DNA of 64,000 nucleotides from Nitrospirales bacterium (GCA_965223295.1 CBDCWC010000003.1:1856001-1920000), one strand, 5' to 3'. Shown: positions 4,542 through 60,473, counted from the first letter of the stretch. The notes: generated by a model not told the origin, from the sequence alone. Program-made: numbers and translations.

Positions 4542-4616
4542 TGGTGGGCGATACTGGGATCGAACCAGTGGCCTCTGCCGTGTGAAGGCAGCGCTCTCCC
4601 ACTGAGCTAATCGCCC
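4542..4616 (-). tRNA. tRNA-Val(CAC)
   Basis: Reverse complement GGGCGATTAGCTCAG...CTGCCTT-CAC-ACGGCAG...GGTTCGATCC...CCA. Confidence 0.95.
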
Positions 4617-8023: not shown

Positions 8024-8210
8024 GGGCCTGTTGAAAAAAACCGCCAGCAGCGTTCTCGCCATTGTTCCGTGCTCAGGTATTGCCAGTACGCTCCGTGGGC
8101 AAACATGGCTGTGGCCTTGCTGAGACATTTTGAACAGCCCCGATGTTGTTGATGGCGAACCGCTTCCGGGCGAAATATGGCCCTTGATATCTTCATTATT
8201 CACCACTCCC
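8024..8210 (-). mobile_element. MITE family 1, copy A
   Basis: GGGCCTGTTGAAAA...TTATTCACCACTCCC; flanks ATCAT/GTCAT; homologous to copies B-F. Confidence 0.8.
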
Positions 8211-8570: not shown

Positions 8571-8655
8571 GGGCAGGTACCCAAGTGGTCAACGGGGGCA
8601 GACTGTAAATCTGCTGCCATCGGCTTCCAAGGTTCGAACCCTTGCCTGCCCACCA
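8571..8655 (+). tRNA. tRNA-Tyr(GTA)
   Basis: GCAGACT-GTA-AATCTGC, long variable arm, GGTTCGAA, CCA. Confidence 0.95.
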
Positions 8656-8799: not shown

Positions 8800-8874
8800 G
8801 CGGGCGTAGCTCAGTGGTAGAGTTCCAGCCTTCCAAGCTGGCTGTCGTGGGTTCAAATCCCATCGCCCGCTCCA
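8800..8874 (+). tRNA. tRNA-Gly(TCC)
   Basis: GCGGGCGTAGCTCAG...CCAGCCT-TCC-AAGCTGG...CCA. Confidence 0.95.
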
Positions 8875-8942: not shown

Positions 8943-9018
8943 GCCCATGTAGCTCAGTTGGTAGAGCACGTCCTTGGTAAGGACGAGGTCACGCGTTCGA
9001 TCCGCGTCGTGGGCTCCA
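8943..9018 (+). tRNA. tRNA-Thr(GGT)
   Basis: GCCCATGTAGCTCAG...CGTCCTT-GGT-AAGGACG...CCA. Confidence 0.95.
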
Positions 9019-10497: not shown

Positions 10498-10573
10498 AGG
10501 GGCATAGTGTCAACGGTTAGCACGTCGGTCTCCAAAACCGAAAGTCCGGGTTCGAATCCTGGTGCCCCTGCCA
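10498..10573 (+). tRNA. tRNA-Trp(CCA)
   Basis: AGGGGCATAG...TCGGTCT-CCA-AAACCGA...GGTTCGAATCC...CCA; rpmG-trnW-secE synteny. Confidence 0.93.
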
Positions 10574-10847: not shown

Positions 10848-11037
10848 GGTGGTGTTGAATAATGAAGACATCAAAGGCCATATTTCGCCAGGAAGCTCTT
10901 GGCGATCATCAGCGTCGGGTTGGTTTAAAAAGTCCGTCCAGCAAGGCCGCAGCCATTGTTGCGCGCGGAGCGTACTGGCAGTACGTGAGCACGGGAAAAT
11001 GGTGAGAACGCCGCTGGCGGATTTTTTCAACAGACTC
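10848..11037 (+). mobile_element. MITE family 1, copy B
   Basis: GGTGGTGTTGAATAA...TTTTTTCAACAGACTC; perfect 5-bp flanking repeat TAACG. Confidence 0.85.
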
Positions 11038-45894: not shown

Positions 45895-46084
45895 GGGATT
45901 GTTGAATAATGATGGTAGCAACGGCCACATTTCGTCTCTGCGACGTCACATGTCAGAGGCTCGGGGCTGTTCAAAAGAGTCTGTCCAGCAAGGCCGCAGC
46001 CATTTTTGCGCGCGGAGCGTACTGGTCGTACGTGAGCACGGAAAAAGGGCGAGAACGCCGTTGGCGGCTTTTTTCAACAGACCA
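45895..46084 (+). mobile_element. MITE family 1, copy C
   Basis: GGGATTGTTGAATAA...TTTTTTCAACAGACCA; flanks TATTC/TTTTC. Confidence 0.8.
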
Positions 46085-46128
46085 TTTTCTAATGTTGGAT
46101 AATTCCTTGCCGGTTCAGGTGTATTCTG

Positions 46129-50168: not shown

Positions 50169-50347
50169 GGGTCTGTTGAAAAAAGCCGCCAGCGGCGTTC
50201 TGGCTCTTTTTCCGTGCTTACGTACTACCAGTACGCTCCGCGCGCAAAAATGGCTGCGGCCTTGCTGAACGGAGACCAGAGGCCTCTGACATGTGGCGTC
50301 GCAGAGACGAAATGTGGCTGTTGATATCATCATTATTGAACAGCCCC
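50169..50347 (-). mobile_element. MITE family 1, copy D
   Basis: GGGTCTGTTGAAAAAA...TTATTGAACAGCCCC; flanks TTGAG/TTGAT. Confidence 0.8.
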
Positions 50348-50470
50348 TTGATAAAAATTCTGGTTGAGAAAGGCCAGAAAAACCTTCATAATCTCTTACC
50401 CTGATTGGGGTTTCAACCGACGAGCGTTTTCTAGGTTAAGGTCTTTTACTTATTAGTGGTAAGGATTGTT

Positions 50471-51631
50471 ATGTTGAGATATTTAAATGCAGGGGAATCA
50501 CATGGGCGGGGTCTGATGGCAGTGGTGGAAGGTGTGCCGTCTGGCCTGCCGGTCACGGCTGATGCGATTAATGTTGATCTTATTCGTCGACAGGGTGGGT
50601 ATGGACGTGGCGGACGGATGCGTATTGAAAAAGATCGAATCGAATTTATCTGCGGTGTTCGCAAAGGGAAAACATTAGGCAATCCGCTTGGCCTCTTGAT
50701 TTGGAATAAAGATTGGGAAAATTGGAAAGAGATCATGGCCTCCGAGCCTGGGCCACCTCCGACGGAACGAGTCGTGACGCGTCCGCGTCCTGGACATGCA
50801 GATTTGGTTGGAGCCATAAAGTATGGGCATCGAGATATTCGGAACGTTTTAGAAAAGGCCAGCGCCCGTGAGACGGCCATTCGCGTGGCAATCGGTGGAG
50901 TCGCCAAGGCGCTTTTAGCCCAGTTTAATATGCAGGTTGTGAGTTATACCATGGACATTGGGGGTGTGGTGGCTCCTTCCCAGGTTGATCCGCTTGCGGC
51001 ATATCAAGAAGCTGAACAATCAGACGTGAGATGTCCGGATCCTGAAGCCGCGAAAAAGATGGTTGAGCATATTCGCGGGGCCAAACACAAAGGGGATTCA
51101 CTGGGAGGAATATTTGAAGTCGTTGTGACAAATCCTCCAGTTGGATTGGGAACCTATGTCCAATGGGATCGACGGCTAACGGCGAGATTGGCGATGGCAG
51201 CCATGAGTATTCAAGCCATGAAAGGCGTGGAAATTGGAATGGGTTTTGAATCGGCGCGTCGCTATGGGTCAGAAGTTCATGATGATATTTATTTTGATCA
51301 AACCGCCGGTAAATTCATTCGGAAGACCAATAACGCAGGGGGCTTAGAAGGGGGTATCACGAATGGTCAACCTATTATCGTACGTGTCGCCATGAAACCC
51401 ATTGCCACCTTGTATAGCCCAAAAGACAGTGTGGATATTGAGACCAAAGAACCCTTTGAAGCGACTGTTGAACGATCAGATATTTGTACGGTCCCTGCCG
51501 CCGGAGTCGTGGGTGAAGCCGTCATTGCTTATGAGATGGCCAATGCCATGATTGAAAAGTTTGGTGGCGATACTCTTGAGGAGATGAAACGGAATTATCA
51601 AGCCTATCAGGAGTACGTCAGCTCATTTTAA
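50471..51631 (+). CDS. aroC: Chorismate synthase
   Basis: AGESHG, PRPGHAD, SARETA, MKPIAT, ERSD. Confidence 0.97.
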   Translation: MLRYLNAGESHGRGLMAVVEGVPSGLPVTADAINVDLIRRQGGYGRGGRMRIEKDRIEFICGVRKGKTLGNPLGLLIWNKDWENWKEIMASEPGPPPTERVVTRPRPGHADLVGAIKYGHRDIRNVLEKASARETAIRVAIGGVAKALLAQFNMQVVSYTMDIGGVVAPSQVDPLAAYQEAEQSDVRCPDPEAAKKMVEHIRGAKHKGDSLGGIFEVVVTNPPVGLGTYVQWDRRLTARLAMAAMSIQAMKGVEIGMGFESARRYGSEVHDDIYFDQTAGKFIRKTNNAGGLEGGITNGQPIIVRVAMKPIATLYSPKDSVDIETKEPFEATVERSDICTVPAAGVVGEAVIAYEMANAMIEKFGGDTLEEMKRNYQAYQEYVSSF

Positions 51632-51710: not shown

Positions 51711-52880
51711 ATGACGACTGTACCTGCCTCTCATCGTGTTCCAGTAGCTTTAGGTGATCGGAGCTATGAGATTCTGATTCAACCAGGTCTTTTAAGCCAC
51801 ATTGGCGATATTCTCCAAAGTATTGACTGTGCTGGACGTGTGGCCATCGTGACCAATCCTGTGGTGAATCAACTATATGGTCGCGTGGTACTCCGTGGGT
51901 TGCGAAAGGGCGGATTTTCCCCGTTCGTTATTCTGATTCCAGATGGAGAGAAGGCTAAAACCGTGCAGTGGTTGGCCAAAATTTTTGATGCGCTTGTGGC
52001 TCAACGGCTGGAACGTCAGGACACGATCTTGGCTTTGGGAGGAGGTGTTACCGGTGACGTGGCAGGGTTCGCGGCTTCGACCTACTTGCGAGGCATTCCT
52101 TTTGTTCAAGTGCCGACCACTCTGGTGGCGCAAGTGGATTCAAGTGTTGGTGGAAAAACCGGAGTCAATCATCCTCAAGGGAAGAACTTAATTGGAGCAT
52201 TTTATCAGCCTAAGACAGTGGTGATTGATCCGCATGTACTCAAAACACTGCCTTCCCGTCAATGGATTGCCGGTTTGGCCGAAGTCATTAAATATGGCGT
52301 AATTGCCGACAAACTATTTTTTGACTATCTTGAGCAACATGTAGACGAAATACGAAATCAGGCTGATGATGCAATGCTTCATGTCTTTCGACGCTGTTGT
52401 GAAATTAAAGCTGACGTGGTGGGGAGTGATGAACGGGAGGCAGGCAGAAGACGAATTTTGAATTATGGACATACCGTAGGTCATGCTTTGGAAGCTTGGG
52501 GACGCTATAGAAAATGGATTCATGGCGAAGCGGTGGGGCTTGGGATGGTTCAAGAAGCTTCTATAGGCCAGTATTTAGGAACGTGTGCAAGCGATGTGGT
52601 TGAACGGCAAGTTGATCTTATCAAAAGGGTGGGGTTGCCTACCGTCATTCCAAAACAAGTGAAATTTCGTGATCTGTGGCAGGCTATGCAACACGATAAA
52701 AAAGTGATCAAAGGGGATATTCATTGTGTTTTGCCTCAGGGAATTGGTGAGGTGTGTGTGGTGCCATTAGTTCGTGAATCTCTACGGAAATGGTTTTCAC
52801 GTCAACCGCCATCTTCTTCAAGATTCGAGAAAAGGATTCGACAATCTTCATCTCGTTCACGACCATCACACAAAAAATAA
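51711..52880 (+). CDS. aroB: 3-dehydroquinate synthase
   Basis: GGGVTGDVAGF, DSSVGGKTG, LNYGHT, HGEAV. Confidence 0.97.
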   Translation: MTTVPASHRVPVALGDRSYEILIQPGLLSHIGDILQSIDCAGRVAIVTNPVVNQLYGRVVLRGLRKGGFSPFVILIPDGEKAKTVQWLAKIFDALVAQRLERQDTILALGGGVTGDVAGFAASTYLRGIPFVQVPTTLVAQVDSSVGGKTGVNHPQGKNLIGAFYQPKTVVIDPHVLKTLPSRQWIAGLAEVIKYGVIADKLFFDYLEQHVDEIRNQADDAMLHVFRRCCEIKADVVGSDEREAGRRRILNYGHTVGHALEAWGRYRKWIHGEAVGLGMVQEASIGQYLGTCASDVVERQVDLIKRVGLPTVIPKQVKFRDLWQAMQHDKKVIKGDIHCVLPQGIGEVCVVPLVRESLRKWFSRQPPSSSRFEKRIRQSSSRSRPSHKK

Positions 52881-52881
52881 C

Positions 52882-54138
52882 ATGGCACGTGCCAAGCAAT
52901 TGACCGGAGAAGAACTGAAACAGCAGGTGCGGGAACGTACTCGTGAGATTCATATTCTTCATCGCATTAGCCAGTCGATTAGTAGTACGTTGGAATTGTC
53001 GACCGTCTTAAAAGAAATTGTCGAGGTGGTGGTTGAAGTGACGAAAGCTGATGCCTGTCTGTTGTATCTACTTTCTGAAAATAGGGAAGAGTTAATTTTA
53101 CGTGCATCAAAGAATCCACATCCGCGATTAATTGGCCGCATTGCTATCGGATTGGGCGAAGGGATTACGGGATGGGTTGCCCGTGAGAAAGTGCCCGTGG
53201 TTATTCCTCGACATGCGAGTGACGACGCCCGGTTTAAATTCTTTCATCGTTTGCCCGAGGATCGTTATCAAGCCTTTGTGTCCGTTCCTATTATCAGTAA
53301 GGGTGAAATTATTGGTGTCATTAACGTCCAACATAAACGTTCCAAGCGTTATACCGAGGAAAGGCTTGCTCTGCTCCTGGCTATTGCCAATCAGGTAGGA
53401 GGAGCCATTGCGAATGCCAGATTATTTGATGAGATGCGCGAGAAAGCTCGCCGTCTTGAAACGCTTTCTCAAGTGTCGGAAACGGTGGCGTCAGACAGAT
53501 TGATTGAAGATGTCTTACAACTAATTGTCACGATGACGGCACAGTTAATGAACTCCAAGATTTGTTCCATTATGCTTGTCGACCAAAATACTGGGGAGCT
53601 TCGAATTTCAGCCACTCAGAGCTTGAGTGATGCCTATCGGCAAAAGCCCCCTTTGAAAGTCGGACAAAGCATGAGTGGACGGGCTGTCCAAGAGCAACGA
53701 CCTGTGTATGTGCCAGATGTGACGGCAGAAGGCGGATATTTTTATCGTGACCTCGCGAAGCAGGAAGGGTTGCACTCGTTGCTTTCAGTTCCTATGTTGA
53801 TCAAAAATACGGTGATTGGAGTCGTGAATGTCTATACTTCGACGCATCACGTTTTTTCTGAAGAAGAGGTCAAGACACTGCAGGTTATTGCAAACCAATC
53901 TGCCGTAGCTATTGAACATACGCGATTGCTAGAAAAATCTTTTGAGATGCAAGAGGCCTTAGAAGTTCGCAAACAAGTAGAAAGGGCAAAGGGTTTTCTC
54001 ATGGCATCAAAAAGGTTATCCGAACCCGAGGCTTTTAGGCTGATGCAACGGCAGAGTATGAATTTAAGAAAATCAATGCGTGAAATCGCTGATGCTATCA
54101 TTCTGGCCGAAGAACTTCAGCAAGCAACACGGCCGTAG
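52882..54138 (+). CDS. GAF-GAF-ANTAR RNA-binding antiterminator
   Basis: Two GAF domains (GEGITGWVA...SVPI; GQSMSGRAV...SVPM) and C-terminal ANTAR signature RKQVERAKGFLM...SEPEAF...SM..RKSMREIA. Confidence 0.9.
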   Translation: MARAKQLTGEELKQQVRERTREIHILHRISQSISSTLELSTVLKEIVEVVVEVTKADACLLYLLSENREELILRASKNPHPRLIGRIAIGLGEGITGWVAREKVPVVIPRHASDDARFKFFHRLPEDRYQAFVSVPIISKGEIIGVINVQHKRSKRYTEERLALLLAIANQVGGAIANARLFDEMREKARRLETLSQVSETVASDRLIEDVLQLIVTMTAQLMNSKICSIMLVDQNTGELRISATQSLSDAYRQKPPLKVGQSMSGRAVQEQRPVYVPDVTAEGGYFYRDLAKQEGLHSLLSVPMLIKNTVIGVVNVYTSTHHVFSEEEVKTLQVIANQSAVAIEHTRLLEKSFEMQEALEVRKQVERAKGFLMASKRLSEPEAFRLMQRQSMNLRKSMREIADAIILAEELQQATRP

Positions 54139-54187
54139 AGAAGATGAATTGTCATGTTTAGAGGCTTACATCGTGGTGATGGGAAGT

Positions 54188-54216
54188 TTGAAGAGTGAAG
54201 TGGGGACTTGTATAAT
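54188..54216 (+). promoter_or_regulatory. sigma70 promoter of nadE-glnD
   Basis: TTGAAG-N17-TATAAT, 10 nt before first ANTAR hairpin. Confidence 0.75.
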
Positions 54217-54226
54217 CGTTAACGTG

Positions 54227-54284
54227 GGTGACAATGAAGTCGCCGTCTTACAGTGAATGAACACACATAGGACAACGGCGTCCT
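54227..54284 (+). promoter_or_regulatory. ANTAR-target RNA: tandem hexaloop hairpins
   Basis: GGTGAC-AATGAA-GTCGCC; GTG-AATGAA-CAC; AGGAC-AACGGC-GTCCT; every loop has A1 and G4. Confidence 0.85.
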
Positions 54285-54315
54285 CGGTTCCTTTTGGAAC
54301 AGAGGACGTTTTTTT
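54279..54315 (+). terminator. Intrinsic terminator/attenuator overlapping the last ANTAR hairpin
   Basis: CGTCCTC-GGTTCC-TTTT-GGAAC-A-GAGGACG followed by T7, directly before nadE ATG. Confidence 0.85.
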
Positions 54316-56118
54316 ATGATGAAACTACGACTAGCCATGGCTCAAATGAATGCCGTTGTTGGTGATCTTGAGGGAAATACTCGGGCTATTTGTCGATGGA
54401 TTCGTGAGGCTCAAAAAGCGAAAGCCGATGTCATTGTATTCCCCGAATTGGCTGTGGCGGGATATCCTCCCGAAGATCTTCTTCTCATGCCGCAGTTTCT
54501 TCGAGATGTCCACCGAAAGCAACAACAAATTGCTAAGGCATCCAAGGGTCTGATGACGGTCGTCGGAAGTGTTGGCATGCCTACGAAAACAAACCTACGG
54601 ACCAAAATCAAATCTAGTCCGACGACTTCTGTCGAATTACAAAAGCCATTGAATGTTGCATGGATATTTGGAAAAGGTCGATTAGTCGGGAGTTATGCCA
54701 AGCAGAATCTTCCCAATTATGGGGTCTTTGATGAACAGCGGTATTTTCAGGAAGGCAAAGGGAATCCAATTTTTTGCTTAGGGCCGATTCGAGTAGGCAT
54801 CAATATTTGCGAGGATATTTGGTTTCCCAATGGGCCAGTTAGCGGGCAAGTGACGATGGGAGGCGCGCACATTATCTTGAATATGAATGCTTCACCCTAT
54901 CATATTGGAAAAACACGTTCTCGACGACGTATGTTGGTAGAACGTGCGAAAACCCACAGAGTGTTTATGAGTTATACGAATATGGTAGGGGGACAGGATG
55001 AATTAGTTTTTGATGGGAATAGCATCGTACTTGACCCTCAAGGACAACTAATCGCTCAAGCAAAGGCCTTTGAAGAAGATCTGATCCTTGCTGATTTAGA
55101 GATTCCTAACGCAGCGCAACAACAACTCGATCGGTTGCGAAAATCTTCGCCTGCAAAAAAAAAGGCGAGGATTTCCTTCATCAGCATTCCTTGGAAACAT
55201 GTCGATTCGAAAGAGTTCCTTCCTTCGGCAACAAAAATGTCACGATCCATGGGCGAATTGGAGGAAGTTTATCGAGCCTTAGTGCTGGGCGTGAAAGACT
55301 ACGTCAGAAAAAATTCGTTCTCTAAGGTTTTGATTGGGATCAGTGGAGGTATTGATTCAGCGTTGACCGCGCTCATTGCCCGGGATGCTCTGGGTGCCGC
55401 TGCGGTCGTGGGCGTGATGATGCCATCTCCTTACACTTCGTCAATCAGCAAGTACGATTCAAAAGTCCTGGCAAATAACTTAGAAATTGAACTGTTGACG
55501 ATCCCCATTACGAACCTCTTTAAACCTTTCCTGCGTGAGTTACACACGTTTTTTAACGGGTACCCTTTAAACACTACGGAAGAAAATTTGCAGGCCCGTA
55601 TTCGAGGTACTCTGTTAATGGCCCTTTCAAATAAGTTTGGCTATCTTGTTTTGACGACAGGCAATAAGAGCGAAATGAGTGTGGGGTATGCCACGTTGTA
55701 TGGGGATATGGCGGGTGGTTTTGCCGTGATTAAAGATATTCCTAAAATGCGTGTGTACCAGTTAGCACGATGGAGGAGTGAATATGAAGGGTCAGGTTTT
55801 GACCGAGTGAGATTTCCAGAAAGAATTCATGTGCGGGCTCCGTCCGCAGAATTACGAGCGAATCAGGAAGATCAGGATTCATTGCCGCCCTACTCTGAGT
55901 TAGATCCTATTCTAGAGGCCTATGTTGAACGAAATTTTTCAAAAAGTCGTATTGTACAGTTAGGCTACTCTGCTCGAACTGTGCAAAAAGTGATACGGCT
56001 TGTAGATAGCAATGAATACAAACGTCGCCAGGCACCAATAGGTATTAAGATCACGGCTCGGGCTCTAGGAAAGGATCGACGGATGCCAATTACCAATCGA
56101 TATGTTCCAAAGAAATGA
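54316..56118 (+). CDS. nadE: Glutamine-dependent NAD+ synthetase
   Basis: Nitrilase domain (FPEL, KQNLPNY, ICEDIW) and synthetase (ISGGIDS, ENLQARIRG, TGNKSE, PSAEL). Confidence 0.95.
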   Translation: MMKLRLAMAQMNAVVGDLEGNTRAICRWIREAQKAKADVIVFPELAVAGYPPEDLLLMPQFLRDVHRKQQQIAKASKGLMTVVGSVGMPTKTNLRTKIKSSPTTSVELQKPLNVAWIFGKGRLVGSYAKQNLPNYGVFDEQRYFQEGKGNPIFCLGPIRVGINICEDIWFPNGPVSGQVTMGGAHIILNMNASPYHIGKTRSRRRMLVERAKTHRVFMSYTNMVGGQDELVFDGNSIVLDPQGQLIAQAKAFEEDLILADLEIPNAAQQQLDRLRKSSPAKKKARISFISIPWKHVDSKEFLPSATKMSRSMGELEEVYRALVLGVKDYVRKNSFSKVLIGISGGIDSALTALIARDALGAAAVVGVMMPSPYTSSISKYDSKVLANNLEIELLTIPITNLFKPFLRELHTFFNGYPLNTTEENLQARIRGTLLMALSNKFGYLVLTTGNKSEMSVGYATLYGDMAGGFAVIKDIPKMRVYQLARWRSEYEGSGFDRVRFPERIHVRAPSAELRANQEDQDSLPPYSELDPILEAYVERNFSKSRIVQLGYSARTVQKVIRLVDSNEYKRRQAPIGIKITARALGKDRRMPITNRYVPKK

Positions 56119-58834
56119 TGTCTTTTTAAAGACACATGTCATGACAAATGATCATTCACTTTCTGTGTCTCATTCCGTTGCTGGTTCCCAGAGTCTGGAG
56201 GAACAACGCGAATTTTTGCATGAACGACTGAGGGAAGGAGCATCTGGCGGAGAAATTGTACAAGCATTTTCGGACTTTATGGATGCGCTCTTGATCGGAC
56301 AATTTCGAGAAGTGGTTCAGCAAAGCCATCCTGACATTCGAGCGAATTGGCAGCAATGTTGTTTGGTGGCCATGGGGGGGTATGGCCGTCGAGAGTTGGC
56401 CCCTTATTCGGATATTGATGTGATGGTCTTGACCCAAGGCAATCAATCTGAAGTTGCTGACACCATTTCCAAAGGCGTGTTTCATCATTTATGGGATTTA
56501 GGTTTTCAGGTAGGGCATAGTGTACGTTCCATCGAGGAGTGCCTTGAGATGGGGTTCGCAGATCTTCCAACGTGTACATCGTTGATGGAGTCCAGGTTTT
56601 TAGGTGGCAATCCAGAAGTTTTTCAGGAGTTTCAGAAAAAGTTTAGCCGGCGAATTCTCAAACGACAGGCCAAGCAATTTGTTCTGGGTAAAATAGAGGA
56701 GCGACAAAAGGAATATGCCAAATTTGGGGAAACCGTTTTTTTACTGGAACCCAATATCAAGAAAAGTAAAGGCGGGTTGCGGGATCTCCACTTGATTCAA
56801 TGGGTGGGCCAGGCCCGCTATGAAGCTGGAACCATCCAAGAGTTGTCTAATCGAGGAATATTGGCCTTTCAAGATTATCAAGTGCTGCACGATGCGCAAG
56901 AATTTCTGTGGCGGCTCAGAGGATTTCTGCATTTTGAGGCCAAGAGAGCTCAGGATATTTTGACCTTTGACGATCAAGTTCGACTTGCAGCCATCTATGG
57001 CTTATCGGATCGTCCCAATCTGCTAGCTGTCGAACAGTTTATGCAACAGTATTTTCTCCATACCACTGGATTACATGATCGATGCATCCGATTTCTTGAG
57101 CAGGCAGAGGAACGTTCATGGGTTGAACGAGTGCGGCAGTGGTGGCCTAATGTACTAATTGAGGGGAATTTTCGAATAGAAGATCAAAAGCTGACCATTC
57201 TTCCGGAAAAGTTGCATGATGTTTTGGAAAGCCCTGTTCAACTTCTTCGACTCTTTGAAATTTCCCAAGATCAAGTGGTCCCCATTGAATCAAAGATTTT
57301 GAATGAATTGTCCCAGCATTTAGTCACCGTACCTAATGAACGATTTCATACGAATGAAGTGAGCAGTCTATTTCGGAACATTCTCAATCGTCCTGGTCGG
57401 ATTGGGAAAACGCTAGAAGCTATGCATCAGGCCAGTTTTTTGGAGAAACTTGTTCCTGCCTTTGCCCGAGTTCGGGGACTCATGCAATTTAACCAGTACC
57501 ATAAATATACGGTTGATGAGCATAGTCTGTTAGCCGTGAAAGAAGCTGAGCGATTGCAACAAGATGAAGGGATGATTGGAGAGGTCTATCGTCAGATCCA
57601 AGACAAGGATATTTTACATTTAGCTGTGTTGTTGCATGATTTAGGAAAAGGGCGACCTGGGGATCATAGTAAAATTGGGCAAGAAATTGCCCACAACTTG
57701 GCTGATCGGTTGGAGCTGTCTTCACAAGATCGAGAGGTGTTGGCCTATCTGGTCTTTCACCACTTAGTGATGTCCCATACTGCATTTCGCCGAGATTTAA
57801 ACGACCCTAAAATCATTCTAACTTTTGCAAGGAAAATGAAAACCGTAGAAGTCCTTCAAAAAATGTTCGTCCTGACGGTCGCTGATATTTCAGCCGTGGG
57901 TCCCGAAGTCATGACCAAATGGAAAGAATCACTGTTGGGAGAACTCTATGCCCGTACTTATGAAGTCTTGGTAGAGGGGAATCATTCTTCTCAAGCCACA
58001 GATGAAAAGCTATTCCGACAACCTGTTATGCAGAAAGCGCTTCTTGAAGCCATGGCTACTCTGCGAGGAGAATCTTCTATGCCAATATCGGAATGGCCTT
58101 CATGGGTGGAGGAGCAATGTTCACAATTACCAGATTGGTATATTACCTCCACGCCAGTTGAGCAAATAGCTTCCCATCTTCTTGCCGTGGAAAATTTATC
58201 TTCTACACCAACCCATGTCGAGGGACGATTTAATGAGGAATTAGGCGTTTCAGAATATGTGCTGATTACGCGAGCCCAAGCAAAACCAGGTCTTTTTATG
58301 CAAGCCACCGGAGTGTTAGCTGCCTTCCGGTTAGAAGTGTTGAATGCTCAGATCATGACATTAGCTGATGGCACGGTGCTGGATATTTTTTCTGTGAATG
58401 ATCCTGATTGTGAAGGCCAGCCTTCGTCGTTGCGATTGAGTGAAGTTTCTCAAGAAATCCAGGCAGTGGTGCAGGAAGGATATTCCATCGAGCAAGTTTT
58501 CGGACGCCGACGCCGTATGAGGTTTGGTCGGCAGTTTCCAACTGGACGGCACCCGACTGAAGTGCTCATTCATAATGAAGTCTCTGATGCTTATACGGTC
58601 ATTGATGTCTTTGCGGACGACAAACCCGGGCTCTTATTCGAATTAGCCAAAACATTAGTGAAGCTCGATCTCTCCATCCATATGGCCAGGATTGGTACCC
58701 GCTTGGATCAAGTTGTGGATGTGTTTTATGTGACGACTGGCCAGGGGGACAAAATTCGTTCTGGAGACCAGGAAGAGAAGATTCAGAATACCATTCAGAA
58801 ATCTGTCGAAATCTTTTTGGATGAAGGGTTATAA
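56102..58834 (+). CDS. glnD: [Protein-PII] uridylyltransferase/removase
   Basis: GGYGRRELAPYSDID, GGLRD, YTVDEH, LLHDLGK, two ACT domains; start may be 56141. Confidence 0.95.
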   Translation: MFQRNDVFLKTHVMTNDHSLSVSHSVAGSQSLEEQREFLHERLREGASGGEIVQAFSDFMDALLIGQFREVVQQSHPDIRANWQQCCLVAMGGYGRRELAPYSDIDVMVLTQGNQSEVADTISKGVFHHLWDLGFQVGHSVRSIEECLEMGFADLPTCTSLMESRFLGGNPEVFQEFQKKFSRRILKRQAKQFVLGKIEERQKEYAKFGETVFLLEPNIKKSKGGLRDLHLIQWVGQARYEAGTIQELSNRGILAFQDYQVLHDAQEFLWRLRGFLHFEAKRAQDILTFDDQVRLAAIYGLSDRPNLLAVEQFMQQYFLHTTGLHDRCIRFLEQAEERSWVERVRQWWPNVLIEGNFRIEDQKLTILPEKLHDVLESPVQLLRLFEISQDQVVPIESKILNELSQHLVTVPNERFHTNEVSSLFRNILNRPGRIGKTLEAMHQASFLEKLVPAFARVRGLMQFNQYHKYTVDEHSLLAVKEAERLQQDEGMIGEVYRQIQDKDILHLAVLLHDLGKGRPGDHSKIGQEIAHNLADRLELSSQDREVLAYLVFHHLVMSHTAFRRDLNDPKIILTFARKMKTVEVLQKMFVLTVADISAVGPEVMTKWKESLLGELYARTYEVLVEGNHSSQATDEKLFRQPVMQKALLEAMATLRGESSMPISEWPSWVEEQCSQLPDWYITSTPVEQIASHLLAVENLSSTPTHVEGRFNEELGVSEYVLITRAQAKPGLFMQATGVLAAFRLEVLNAQIMTLADGTVLDIFSVNDPDCEGQPSSLRLSEVSQEIQAVVQEGYSIEQVFGRRRRMRFGRQFPTGRHPTEVLIHNEVSDAYTVIDVFADDKPGLLFELAKTLVKLDLSIHMARIGTRLDQVVDVFYVTTGQGDKIRSGDQEEKIQNTIQKSVEIFLDEGL

Positions 58835-59117: not shown

Positions 59118-60086
59118 CTATGGTCGATGAGTGAGTTCCCAATCTACTGCTGAATGAATAATTTCTTGGAGCTGGGAGGAGGTGGGTTTCCACGCTAGGG
59201 TGGACATTAGGGAGGAGGGGTCAGCAACCAACTGAGGAGGATCTCCCGGGCGTCGAGGCAGCGTTTCAATCGATGGCGTGACTGAGAGACGTTGGGCGAT
59301 AGCCTGAATCACTTGGAGAACAGAATGACCCCGGCCAGTTCCCACATTGAAATTGTACTGCCCTTTTAGATTGGTAGTCTCGATTGCTCTCACATGTGCG
59401 TCAGCGAGGTCCATGACATGGATATAGTCTCGAATGCAGGTGCCATCAGGTGTTGAGTAGTCACTCCCATATACCTGCACTGGTTTTTCTGAGCGAAGTG
59501 CTCGAATCACTCGAGGGATGAGGTGTTCTTCTGGATCATGCTGCTCGCCGACCTGCCACGACACATTAGCTCCAGAGGCATTAAAATACCGAAGCGCAAT
59601 GGAATTGAACTCCAATGCGCGGGCGCTTGCATGTAAGACTTGCTCAAATCCTAACTTCGAAGCCCCGTAGGGAGAGGTGGGGAGAAGTGCTGAGTGTTCT
59701 TGAATGGGAATTTGCGTTGCATTGCCGTACACAGCTGCCGTGGAAGAAAAGACAAATGACTGAATAGGAAATTGAGCACATGCCGTAAGAAGACTTGTGC
59801 TCGCACCAAGATTATTATTCCAATATTTATCAGGTTTCTGAACAGATTCTCCTACACTGATATACCCACCTAGGTGGATGATGGCCTCTGGGCGATGTTT
59901 TTTAAAGACGGACAGGACATGTTCTGTATCTTCAAGCGCGATTTTCTCAACAGGGAATTCCCCTGCTCGGCTTTCCACGGATGTTCGAAAATCATCAAGA
60001 ATGATAGGATGATGTTGCCGTTCTGCTAATGCACGTACCACATGTGCACCGATATAGCCAGCTCCTCCAGTGACAAGAACTTTCAT
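59118..60086 (-). CDS. galE: UDP-glucose 4-epimerase
   Basis: TGGAGYIG, SSTAAVYG, YGASK, LRYFNA, DGTCIRDYIHV. Confidence 0.93.
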   Translation of the reverse strand: MKVLVTGGAGYIGAHVVRALAERQHHPIILDDFRTSVESRAGEFPVEKIALEDTEHVLSVFKKHRPEAIIHLGGYISVGESVQKPDKYWNNNLGASTSLLTACAQFPIQSFVFSSTAAVYGNATQIPIQEHSALLPTSPYGASKLGFEQVLHASARALEFNSIALRYFNASGANVSWQVGEQHDPEEHLIPRVIRALRSEKPVQVYGSDYSTPDGTCIRDYIHVMDLADAHVRAIETTNLKGQYNFNVGTGRGHSVLQVIQAIAQRLSVTPSIETLPRRPGDPPQLVADPSSLMSTLAWKPTSSQLQEIIHSAVDWELTHRP

Positions 60087-60273: not shown

Positions 60274-60473
60274 GGGTCTGTTGAAAAAATCCGCCAGCGG
60301 CGTTTTCACCATTTTCCCGTGCTCACGTGGGTGTCAGTACGCTCCGAGCGAAAAAATGGCTGTGGCCTTCCCTCGACAAGCTCAGAGCAGGACTGAATGG
60401 ACCAGATGACGCCGACATGGTACGTTGCAGATACAAAATTTGGCTGTTGATATCATCATTATTCAACAGTCCC
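60274..60473 (-). mobile_element. MITE family 1, copy F (one REP-like insert)
   Basis: GGGTCTGTTGAAAAAA...TTATTCAACAGTCCC; perfect 5-bp flanking repeat AAGGT. Confidence 0.85.

Follow-up and report, generated by a model that had tools for sequence, protein, structure and literature searches.

The window examined here, a stretch of 64,000 nucleotides (nt) from the genome of a Nitrospirales bacterium (G000:C3:1856001-1920000; genome size 3.78 Mb, 47% G+C), contains a gene for a 418-residue protein that combines two GAF domains with an ANTAR domain, followed by nadE and glnD, which encode glutamine-dependent NAD+ synthetase and the uridylyltransferase of PII. A spacer of 177 nt separates the regulator gene from nadE, and within it lie a promoter, two small hexaloop hairpins (P1 and P2) and an intrinsic terminator that overlaps P2. 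This design recurs in a second leader 1.4 Mb away, which stands before a gene cluster for a porin, PII, an ammonium transporter and glutamine synthetase. Taken together, these elements most likely constitute a canonical ANTAR antitermination switch, in which a one-component GAF sensor acts on two leaders and thereby governs a small nitrogen regulon.

The targets of ANTAR proteins have been described as two hexaloop stem-loops with A at loop position 1 and G at loop position 4 (A1/G4), the second of which overlaps an intrinsic terminator, and binding of the protein favours readthrough (PMC3369931). In the same work, Ramesh et al. (2012) predicted ANTAR sites before genes for PII, ammonium transporters and glutamine synthetase in other phyla, and stated that no PAS- or GAF-ANTAR protein had yet been characterised.

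Two leaders with overlapping hairpins and terminators

A first-pass annotation of this DNA had reported a GAF-GAF-ANTAR gene without a receiver domain, a downstream promoter of the form TTGAAG-N17-TATAAT, hairpins with AxxGxx hexaloops, and a terminator that shares GTCCT with the last hairpin, followed by nadE and glnD. All of these were found again at the same places (Table 1), and the two enzyme identities hold, as both products lie above their equivalog cut-offs (709.9 bits against 479 on NF010588 for the nadE product; 718.2 bits against 519.4 on TIGR01693 for the glnD product). The genes follow one another along the strand in the order aroC, aroB, regulator, nadE and glnD, the last two overlapping by 17 nt, before a convergent epimerase gene. 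The regulator start, 1 nt past the aroB stop codon, was set by alignment of orthologues, and comparison of start codons places the nadE start that is kept among relatives at the second ATG, 54319.

The promoter is the best among 15 promoter-like sites in 8 kb, a total that does not stand out from that of shuffled sequences (11.9 +/- 3.4), so that the evidence for it is its conservation. The sequence GUCCU (54280-54284) is common to the 3′ arm of P2 and the start of the 5′ arm of the terminator, and the two folds are thus mutually exclusive. The calculated folding energy of the whole leader is -40.7 kcal/mol (z = -4.14), a value that none of 200 shuffles reaches. Calculated singly, P1 has an energy of -7.9 kcal/mol, P2 of -5.6 and the terminator of -18.9, and the conformer in which P1 is combined with P2 reaches -15.6 kcal/mol, that in which P1 is combined with the terminator -28.2. 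As the latter is the more stable, the default state would be termination just before nadE, with the ribosome-binding site sequestered. The putative Shine-Dalgarno sequence GAGGA is 9 nt from the ATG at 54316 and 12 nt from that at 54319. A consensus terminator scan picked up P2 only and not the bulged full terminator, which is visible in folding. Public sequencing runs were searched for positions 53900-55000, and no RNA run was listed as containing them. Rfam, which may or may not contain this motif, matched only tRNAs in the window at gathering scores, and at E<=1 gave no match on the second leader.

Table 1. Features of the nadE leader and the surrounding genes (positions counted from the first nucleotide of the window)
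Feature	Position	Strand	Basis or remark
aroC	50456-51631		upstream of aroB
aroB (3-dehydroquinate synthase)	51711..52880	+	Pfam DHQ_synthase, 9.9e-50
GAF-GAF-ANTAR one-component regulator, 418 residues	52882..54138	+	Pfam GAF (two) and ANTAR
sigma-70-type promoter TTGAAG-N17-TATAAT	54188..54216	+	10/12 matches; putative transcription start site
hairpin P1, 6-bp stem GGUGAC-AAUGAA-GUCGCC	54227..54244	+	hexaloop, A1/G4
hairpin P2, 5-bp stem AGGAC-AACGGC-GUCCU	54269..54284	+	hexaloop, A1/G4
intrinsic terminator GUCCUC-G-GUUCC-UUUU-GGAAC-A-GAGGAC	54280-54307	+	11 bp, one bulge in each arm, UUUU loop
likely Shine-Dalgarno sequence GAGGA of nadE	54302..54306	+	inside terminator 3′ arm; putative role
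U7 tract	54309-54315	+	ends at nadE start codon
nadE, glutamine-dependent NAD+ synthetase	54316..56118	+	Pfam CN_hydrolase and NAD_synthase; NF010588
glnD, PII uridylyltransferase/uridylyl-removing enzyme	56102..58834	+	Pfam GlnD_UR_UTase, HD and ACT; TIGR01693
next gene after glnD	59118-60086	convergent	open reading frame map

The second leader (G000:C2:547103-547240) was revealed by a search for the core GAC-RANGNN-GUC that both hairpins have in common; the core pattern GAC[AG]ANGNNGTC has 78 matches in the genome, nearly all of them within genes. It consists of a promoter (TTGACA-N17-TAAAAA), a long P1 with the loop AACGAC, a P2 of the form GGAC-GAUGAA-GUCC, and an overlapping terminator with a U9 tract. 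The genes behind it encode an OmpL-like porin, PII (glnB/K), an ammonium transporter (amt) and glutamine synthetase (glnA). The first-pass annotation had proposed a genome-wide covariance search, with glnA, amt and glnB as possible further targets, and its guess is borne out by this site. Its description of the system as self-contained does not stand, since two operons are involved.

Whole-genome searches returned the same two leaders. The covariance model R1 scores them at 55.4 and 53.6 bits, with the next match at 24.1 bits; R1 matches both leaders by construction, and the informative part of this search is that no third site appears. A rule-based scan, for which a hexaloop hairpin had to have a 3′ arm that starts a stable hairpin at a T-run, as well as an upstream partner hairpin, found the combination of P1, P2 and a compact overlapping terminator at these two sites only. 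A looser scan, which accepted every pair of A..G.. hexaloop hairpins up to 35 nt apart, was too unspecific to be of use, with 492 matches, 54 of them near a T-run.

Conservation, covariation and distribution

Each of the 24 sampled genomes of the same genus has an orthologue of the regulator, as do two other families within the order, and nadE follows this gene at 23 same-genus loci (L003-L025) and at four of the six loci from the other families. The 24 genus leaders, among which the window's own is counted, all retain the promoter hexamers (with small changes), P2, the terminator and the U-tract, and 23 of them have a canonical P1, the exception being the aberrant P1 of L016. In the alignment of these leaders, P1 and P2 together are 92% paired, compared with 33-65% for controls in which the pairing partners were slid, and the terminator helix is paired in 99.2% of cells. 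The second leader was matched by DNA search in 18 of the 24 genomes; among the six in which it is missing, five have a completeness of 66-87% and the sixth (G017) one of 91%. Each of the 19 copies of the second leader, the window genome's own included, has P1, P2 and the terminator.

Covariation was assessed in an alignment of 42 dual-hairpin elements, 23 of the nadE type and 19 of the amt type, in which 94% of cells are paired. Changes on both sides of a pair occur in 39 cells, compared with 15.4 +/- 3.0 in shuffled alignments, none of 500 of which reaches 39. All of this covariation falls within P1, where four of the six pairs have changed on both sides across relatives, and the P2 stem GGAC/GUCC is invariant in 42/42 elements. 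The P1 loop has A1 in 41 of the 42 elements and G4 likewise in 41; in the P2 loop, position 1 is A in 30 elements and G in 12, and G4 is present in all 42. Loop position 2 also varies in more distant genera, and A1 and G4 stay. The leader structure is therefore under selection and is no chance match, and the conservation of the hairpins among relatives, one of the checks named by the first-pass annotation, extends to compensatory changes in P1.

The distribution of the motif across the order was surveyed in 81 genomes, each at least 90% complete, which were searched with R1 and with the ANTAR protein. The motif occurs in 38 of the 63 genomes with an ANTAR orthologue and in none of the 18 without, counts that are not independent, as the compared genomes are related. 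Such tracking of the orthologue by the motif agrees with the control by the ANTAR protein that had been suggested for the window. In one genus (g2) the orthologue is found in 5 of 18 genomes, and the same five carry the motif. The 29 best-hit loci, all from other genomes, have NadE as the first recognisable downstream product in 10 cases, the porin of the nitrogen cluster in 16, cyanate lyase and then Amt in one, and no recognised gene in two; at L154 the open reading frames downstream of the motif match no Pfam family. At four loci of family f2 (L144, L147, L151 and L162), nadE lies directly upstream of a porin-type leader, which makes the two target loci adjacent. The cyanate lyase site, in another genus (L159, G104:C14:11266-11320, minus strand), carries the dual-hairpin motif at 38 bits before the cyanate lyase and Amt genes and has no U-run; it could be an additional member of the regulon, perhaps one controlled at translation.

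Several observations weigh against the proposed switch. Apart from the relatedness of the genomes, 25 of the 63 orthologue-positive genomes have no R1 match, among them all 13 of family f3 and 10 of the 21 of genus g8; matches in g8 are weak and the search used stricter filters, and R1 gives weak matches of 8-14 bits on the f3 loci, whose leaders are of a different tandem design, so that R1 undercounts the motif in that family. At one same-genus locus (L055) the ANTAR, nadE and glnD genes are present without leader hairpins, and an interspersed repeat stands in their place. At L098, L091 and L109 (Nitrospira lenta and others) nadE begins 8-24 nt past the ANTAR gene with no leader between them, from which it follows that the pairing of the ANTAR and nadE genes predates the leader and extends more widely. 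Covariation is absent from P2 itself, whose conservation could equally reflect the terminator. A repeat copy with a hairpin and U-run also lies between the second-leader terminator and the porin gene, where it could interfere with readthrough.

In the wider set of 80 loci (L052-L131), nadE is downstream of the ANTAR gene in 35, and in 26 of these it is preceded by one or more hexaloop hairpins of the GGAC type. aroB stands upstream of the ANTAR orthologue at 60 of these 80 loci and at 29/29 of the loci L003-L031; the ANTAR gene is thus tied to aroB at least as tightly as to the leader.

The f3 leaders, in the ANTAR-nadE spacers at L028:2766-2935, L029:170-365 (minus strand) and L031:2760-2983, open with a hairpin whose AAUGAU loop is read as a hexaloop (an unconstrained fold closes one more pair). 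Two long terminator-like hairpins then follow in tandem, the 5′ arm of each overlapped by a preceding GAC-hexaloop-GUC mini-hairpin. The fold has an energy of -83.4 kcal/mol (z = -6.19).

The regulator, its proposed mode of action and its candidate signal

The ANTAR domain occupies residues 356-407 of the regulator and scores 70.3 bits against a cut-off of 27.3 (Pfam PF03861); the protein is the sole PF03861 match in the genome, and the Pfam scan found no receiver domain in it. By sequence it matches, within the PDB, the ANTAR parts of 1s8n, 6wsh and NasR (4akk). In the AlphaFold2 model (mean predicted local distance difference test score 79.7), an N-terminal helix is followed by a first GAF domain (GAF-A), a long helix, a second GAF domain (GAF-B), a 50-residue helix and two more helices. 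The C-terminal helices of this predicted monomer, at residues 327-377, 381-395 and 399-416, correspond to a long linker that runs into a three-helix ANTAR unit. The position of the gene at the end of the aroC-aroB housekeeping operon suggests steady synthesis, with control at the level of the protein, and the regulator is probably made constitutively from that operon.

The proposed mechanism would begin with the promoter (54188-54216), which would start a leader RNA of about 90 nt. In the unbound leader the terminator (54280-54315, with its U-tract) would fold, and transcription would stop at the U-tract before nadE, with the ribosome-binding site buried in the 3′ arm. The active and presumably dimeric GAF-GAF-ANTAR protein would hold the weak hairpins P1 and P2 through its ANTAR domains. 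P2 would then occupy GUCCU, so that no terminator would form, the polymerase would enter nadE-glnD and the ribosome-binding site would be free. The same protein would act on the second leader before porin-PII-amt-glnA, and control would be exerted through binding of a ligand to the GAF domains, if the regulator is indeed constitutive.

The nature of that ligand is suggested by comparison of the GAF domains. GAF-A matches the GAF domain of PtsP over its full length by sequence (3ci6, E 2.8e-23; 3trc, E 1.1e-19), and by fold it superimposes on the PtsP domain with 32% identity, a template modelling (TM) score of 0.85 on the chain (range 0.85-0.86) and a root-mean-square deviation of 2.2. The NCBIfam models for PtsP (NF008283, 2e-40) and NifA (TIGR01817, 5.7e-29) also match, at the level of the domain and far below their whole-protein cut-offs. 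The GAF domain of NifA binds 2-oxoglutarate. That of PtsP has been described as binding glutamine and 2-oxoglutarate with opposite effects (PMC13104625). The favoured candidate for the signal, as a tentative assignment, would be the balance of glutamine and 2-oxoglutarate, with activation under nitrogen limitation, and targets such as amt, PII and glnA fit readthrough under that condition. Under limitation, readthrough would raise GlnD, as well as the glutamine-using NadE, at a time when glutamine is scarce. It is conceivable, at a slightly lower level of confidence, that the GAF-GAF-ANTAR protein is the principal regulator of nitrogen status in the Nitrospirales, with a PtsP-like GAF domain that reads glutamine and 2-oxoglutarate directly and an output by antitermination rather than promoter control. 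If this were true, the regulator would set the porin, PII, Amt, glutamine synthetase, the PII modifier GlnD and glutamine-consuming NAD synthesis, and it would be the first characterised GAF-ANTAR protein and the first direct metabolite-to-RNA nitrogen sensor of this kind.

The ligand assignment comes from domain similarity under the PtsP and NifA family cut-offs, which counts against it, as does GAF-B (residues ~190-352), whose nearest relatives are cyclic-nucleotide GAF domains (5w10, the cAMP GAF of Lcd1, E 3.5e-10). In structure comparison, the tandem-GAF fold of the model resembles PDE2A and CyaB2. The same protein and RNA sites might thus serve another signal, such as a cyclic nucleotide, a different small molecule or a partner such as PII, which together with its modifier GlnD is encoded within the regulon; there is also a precedent in the ANTAR protein NasT, for which binding of c-di-GMP has been reported (PMC10783516). 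This is judged less likely, as cyclic-nucleotide GAF domains match GAF-A far more weakly (1e-10 to 1e-11) than does that of PtsP, and the core nitrogen-assimilation targets fit a direct nitrogen-status signal.

A mainly translational switch, in which the hairpin hides the ribosome-binding site of nadE and ANTAR binding frees it, would account for the position of GAGGA in the hairpin 3′ arm, near the start codon. Actinobacterial ANTAR RNAs have been reported as acting by translational repression (bioRxiv 10.1101/660928), and the cyanase-amt site without a U-run points the same way. It is nevertheless improbable as the main mode, since U7-U9 follow the hairpin in 24 nadE leaders and 19 amt leaders, and in amt-type leaders some 140-400 nt separate the hairpin from the first gene, too great a distance for it to mask the ribosome-binding site of that gene. 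For nadE, the translational and termination modes are not exclusive.

Still less probable is that the hairpins are bound by some other factor, or form an unregulated or metabolite-sensing attenuator, and that the neighbouring ANTAR gene is coincidental. The invariance of P2 and the more constant linkage of the ANTAR gene to aroB than to the leader would be in keeping with this, but the loops retain the exact A1/G4 signature of ANTAR targets, the motif was found in none of the 18 genomes without the orthologue, with a five-for-five coincidence in genus g2, no Rfam match was obtained in the window (tRNAs aside) or on the second leader, and small hexaloop hairpins have no ligand pocket. That the terminator, the first past the ANTAR stop codon, merely ends the aroC-aroB-ANTAR transcript and that the hairpins arose by chance is scarcely credible: a conserved promoter stands between gene and hairpins, and the reading is already contradicted by the second leader, which repeats the design far away and is not preceded by an ANTAR gene, by the covariation of P1, and by the genome search.

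Relation to known systems and further observations

The RNA and mechanism of the proposed switch are those of canonical ANTAR systems, and what is added to them is a sensor and a regulon rather than a new principle. The eut leaders of Enterococcus faecalis, the targets of EutV/EutW, have the same dual A1/G4 hexaloops and the same overlap of P2 and terminator as the window leader. In contrast to that system, the window regulator has neither a receiver domain nor a kinase partner, and its input consists of two GAF domains. GnfR of Geobacter sulfurreducens, which acts with GnfK, is reportedly a response regulator with receiver and ANTAR domains that serves a nitrogen-fixation cascade by antitermination of nitrogen-metabolism genes; that system is two-component and belongs to another lineage, with another gene set.

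Closer in architecture are the one-component proteins NasR of Klebsiella oxytoca (NIT-ANTAR) and PAL (PAS-LOV-ANTAR), in which the sensor is fused through a helical linker, as it is here (PMC7496416). These two were the only one-component ANTAR proteins named in that 2020 account, and NasR exerts antitermination of a nitrogen-assimilation operon, akin to the role proposed here (PMC7496416). The window protein differs from both in its tandem GAF domains in place of NIT or LOV, in its likely signal (nitrogen status, not nitrate or light), and in having two target operons, not one. The likeness to PtsP (EI-Ntr) and NifA lies in GAF-A; the window protein has an ANTAR domain for RNA binding as its output, where the others have a phosphotransferase or an AAA+ activator, it carries a further GAF domain behind the first, and its ligand binding is a prediction.

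In relation to the motif described in 2012, nadE-glnD lies outside the main text of that paper, where the terms 'NAD' and 'uridylyl' have 0 occurrences, the sites of its Table S2 not being covered by this count (PMC3369931), and the Nitrospirales elements depart from the motif where G replaces A at P2 loop position 1 (12/42). A functional link between nitrogen signalling and NadE has been described by Santos et al. (2020), according to whom PII controls glutamine-dependent NadE; the abstract cites an earlier gene-neighbourhood analysis of nadE (PMC7196632). That link is a post-translational protein contact, whereas the co-regulation of nadE and glnD proposed here would take place at the RNA level. 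Literature searches that combined ANTAR with nadE, glnD, NAD synthetase or Nitrospira yielded no paper on this system, Table S2 of PMC3369931 not being covered, and a search for 'GAF-ANTAR' returned one passing mention and no paper on it, which accords with the remark in the first-pass annotation that no ANTAR regulon on nadE-glnD was known to it. The GAF-GAF input, the PtsP-like sensor domain, the nadE-glnD target and the lineage are new.

Members of the Nitrospirales live in oceans, soils and wastewater plants, where they oxidise nitrite and, in some cases, perform complete ammonia oxidation. No description of how these bacteria sense nitrogen or regulate their own nitrogen assimilation was found in the papers searched. 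Here, a concrete circuit can be put forward that comprises one conserved sensor, two short RNA leaders and the gene set nadE-glnD plus porin-PII-amt-glnA. The large and unstudied GAF-ANTAR class would thereby gain its first example whose targets are known and for which a ligand can plausibly be named. The list of genes assigned to ANTAR control also grows by those for NAD synthesis and PII uridylyltransferase.

Around the second target cluster, an open reading frame resembling glnE, with GlnE and GlnD_UR_UTase domains, is convergent to glnA (L032:7170-7925, minus strand); the portion scanned, of 251 residues, lies at the edge of the locus sequence. Among the sigma-54 activators of the genome, the one that scores best as NtrC-like (G000:C2:535671-536999) is encoded about 10 kb upstream of this cluster. 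A genome search with the NtrC equivalog model TIGR01818 gave 27 matches, 22 of them long (256-454 bits), and the best, at 454 bits, is below the cut-off of 558.6.

The interspersed repeat is about 120 nt long and has 247 blastn matches in the genome (150 on C3, 96 on C2 and 1 on C1). It consists of a GC-rich hairpin followed by a T-run, and it looks like an element of the type of miniature inverted-repeat transposable elements (MITE) or repetitive extragenic palindromes (REP). Copies lie in the window at 8029-8122, 10912-11032, 45962-46088, 50174-50273 and 60279-60369, and a further one at L032:2330-2475. Five tRNA genes are clustered elsewhere in the window, one on the minus strand (4545-4616) and four on the plus strand (8571-8652, 8800-8871, 8943-9015 and 10498-10570).

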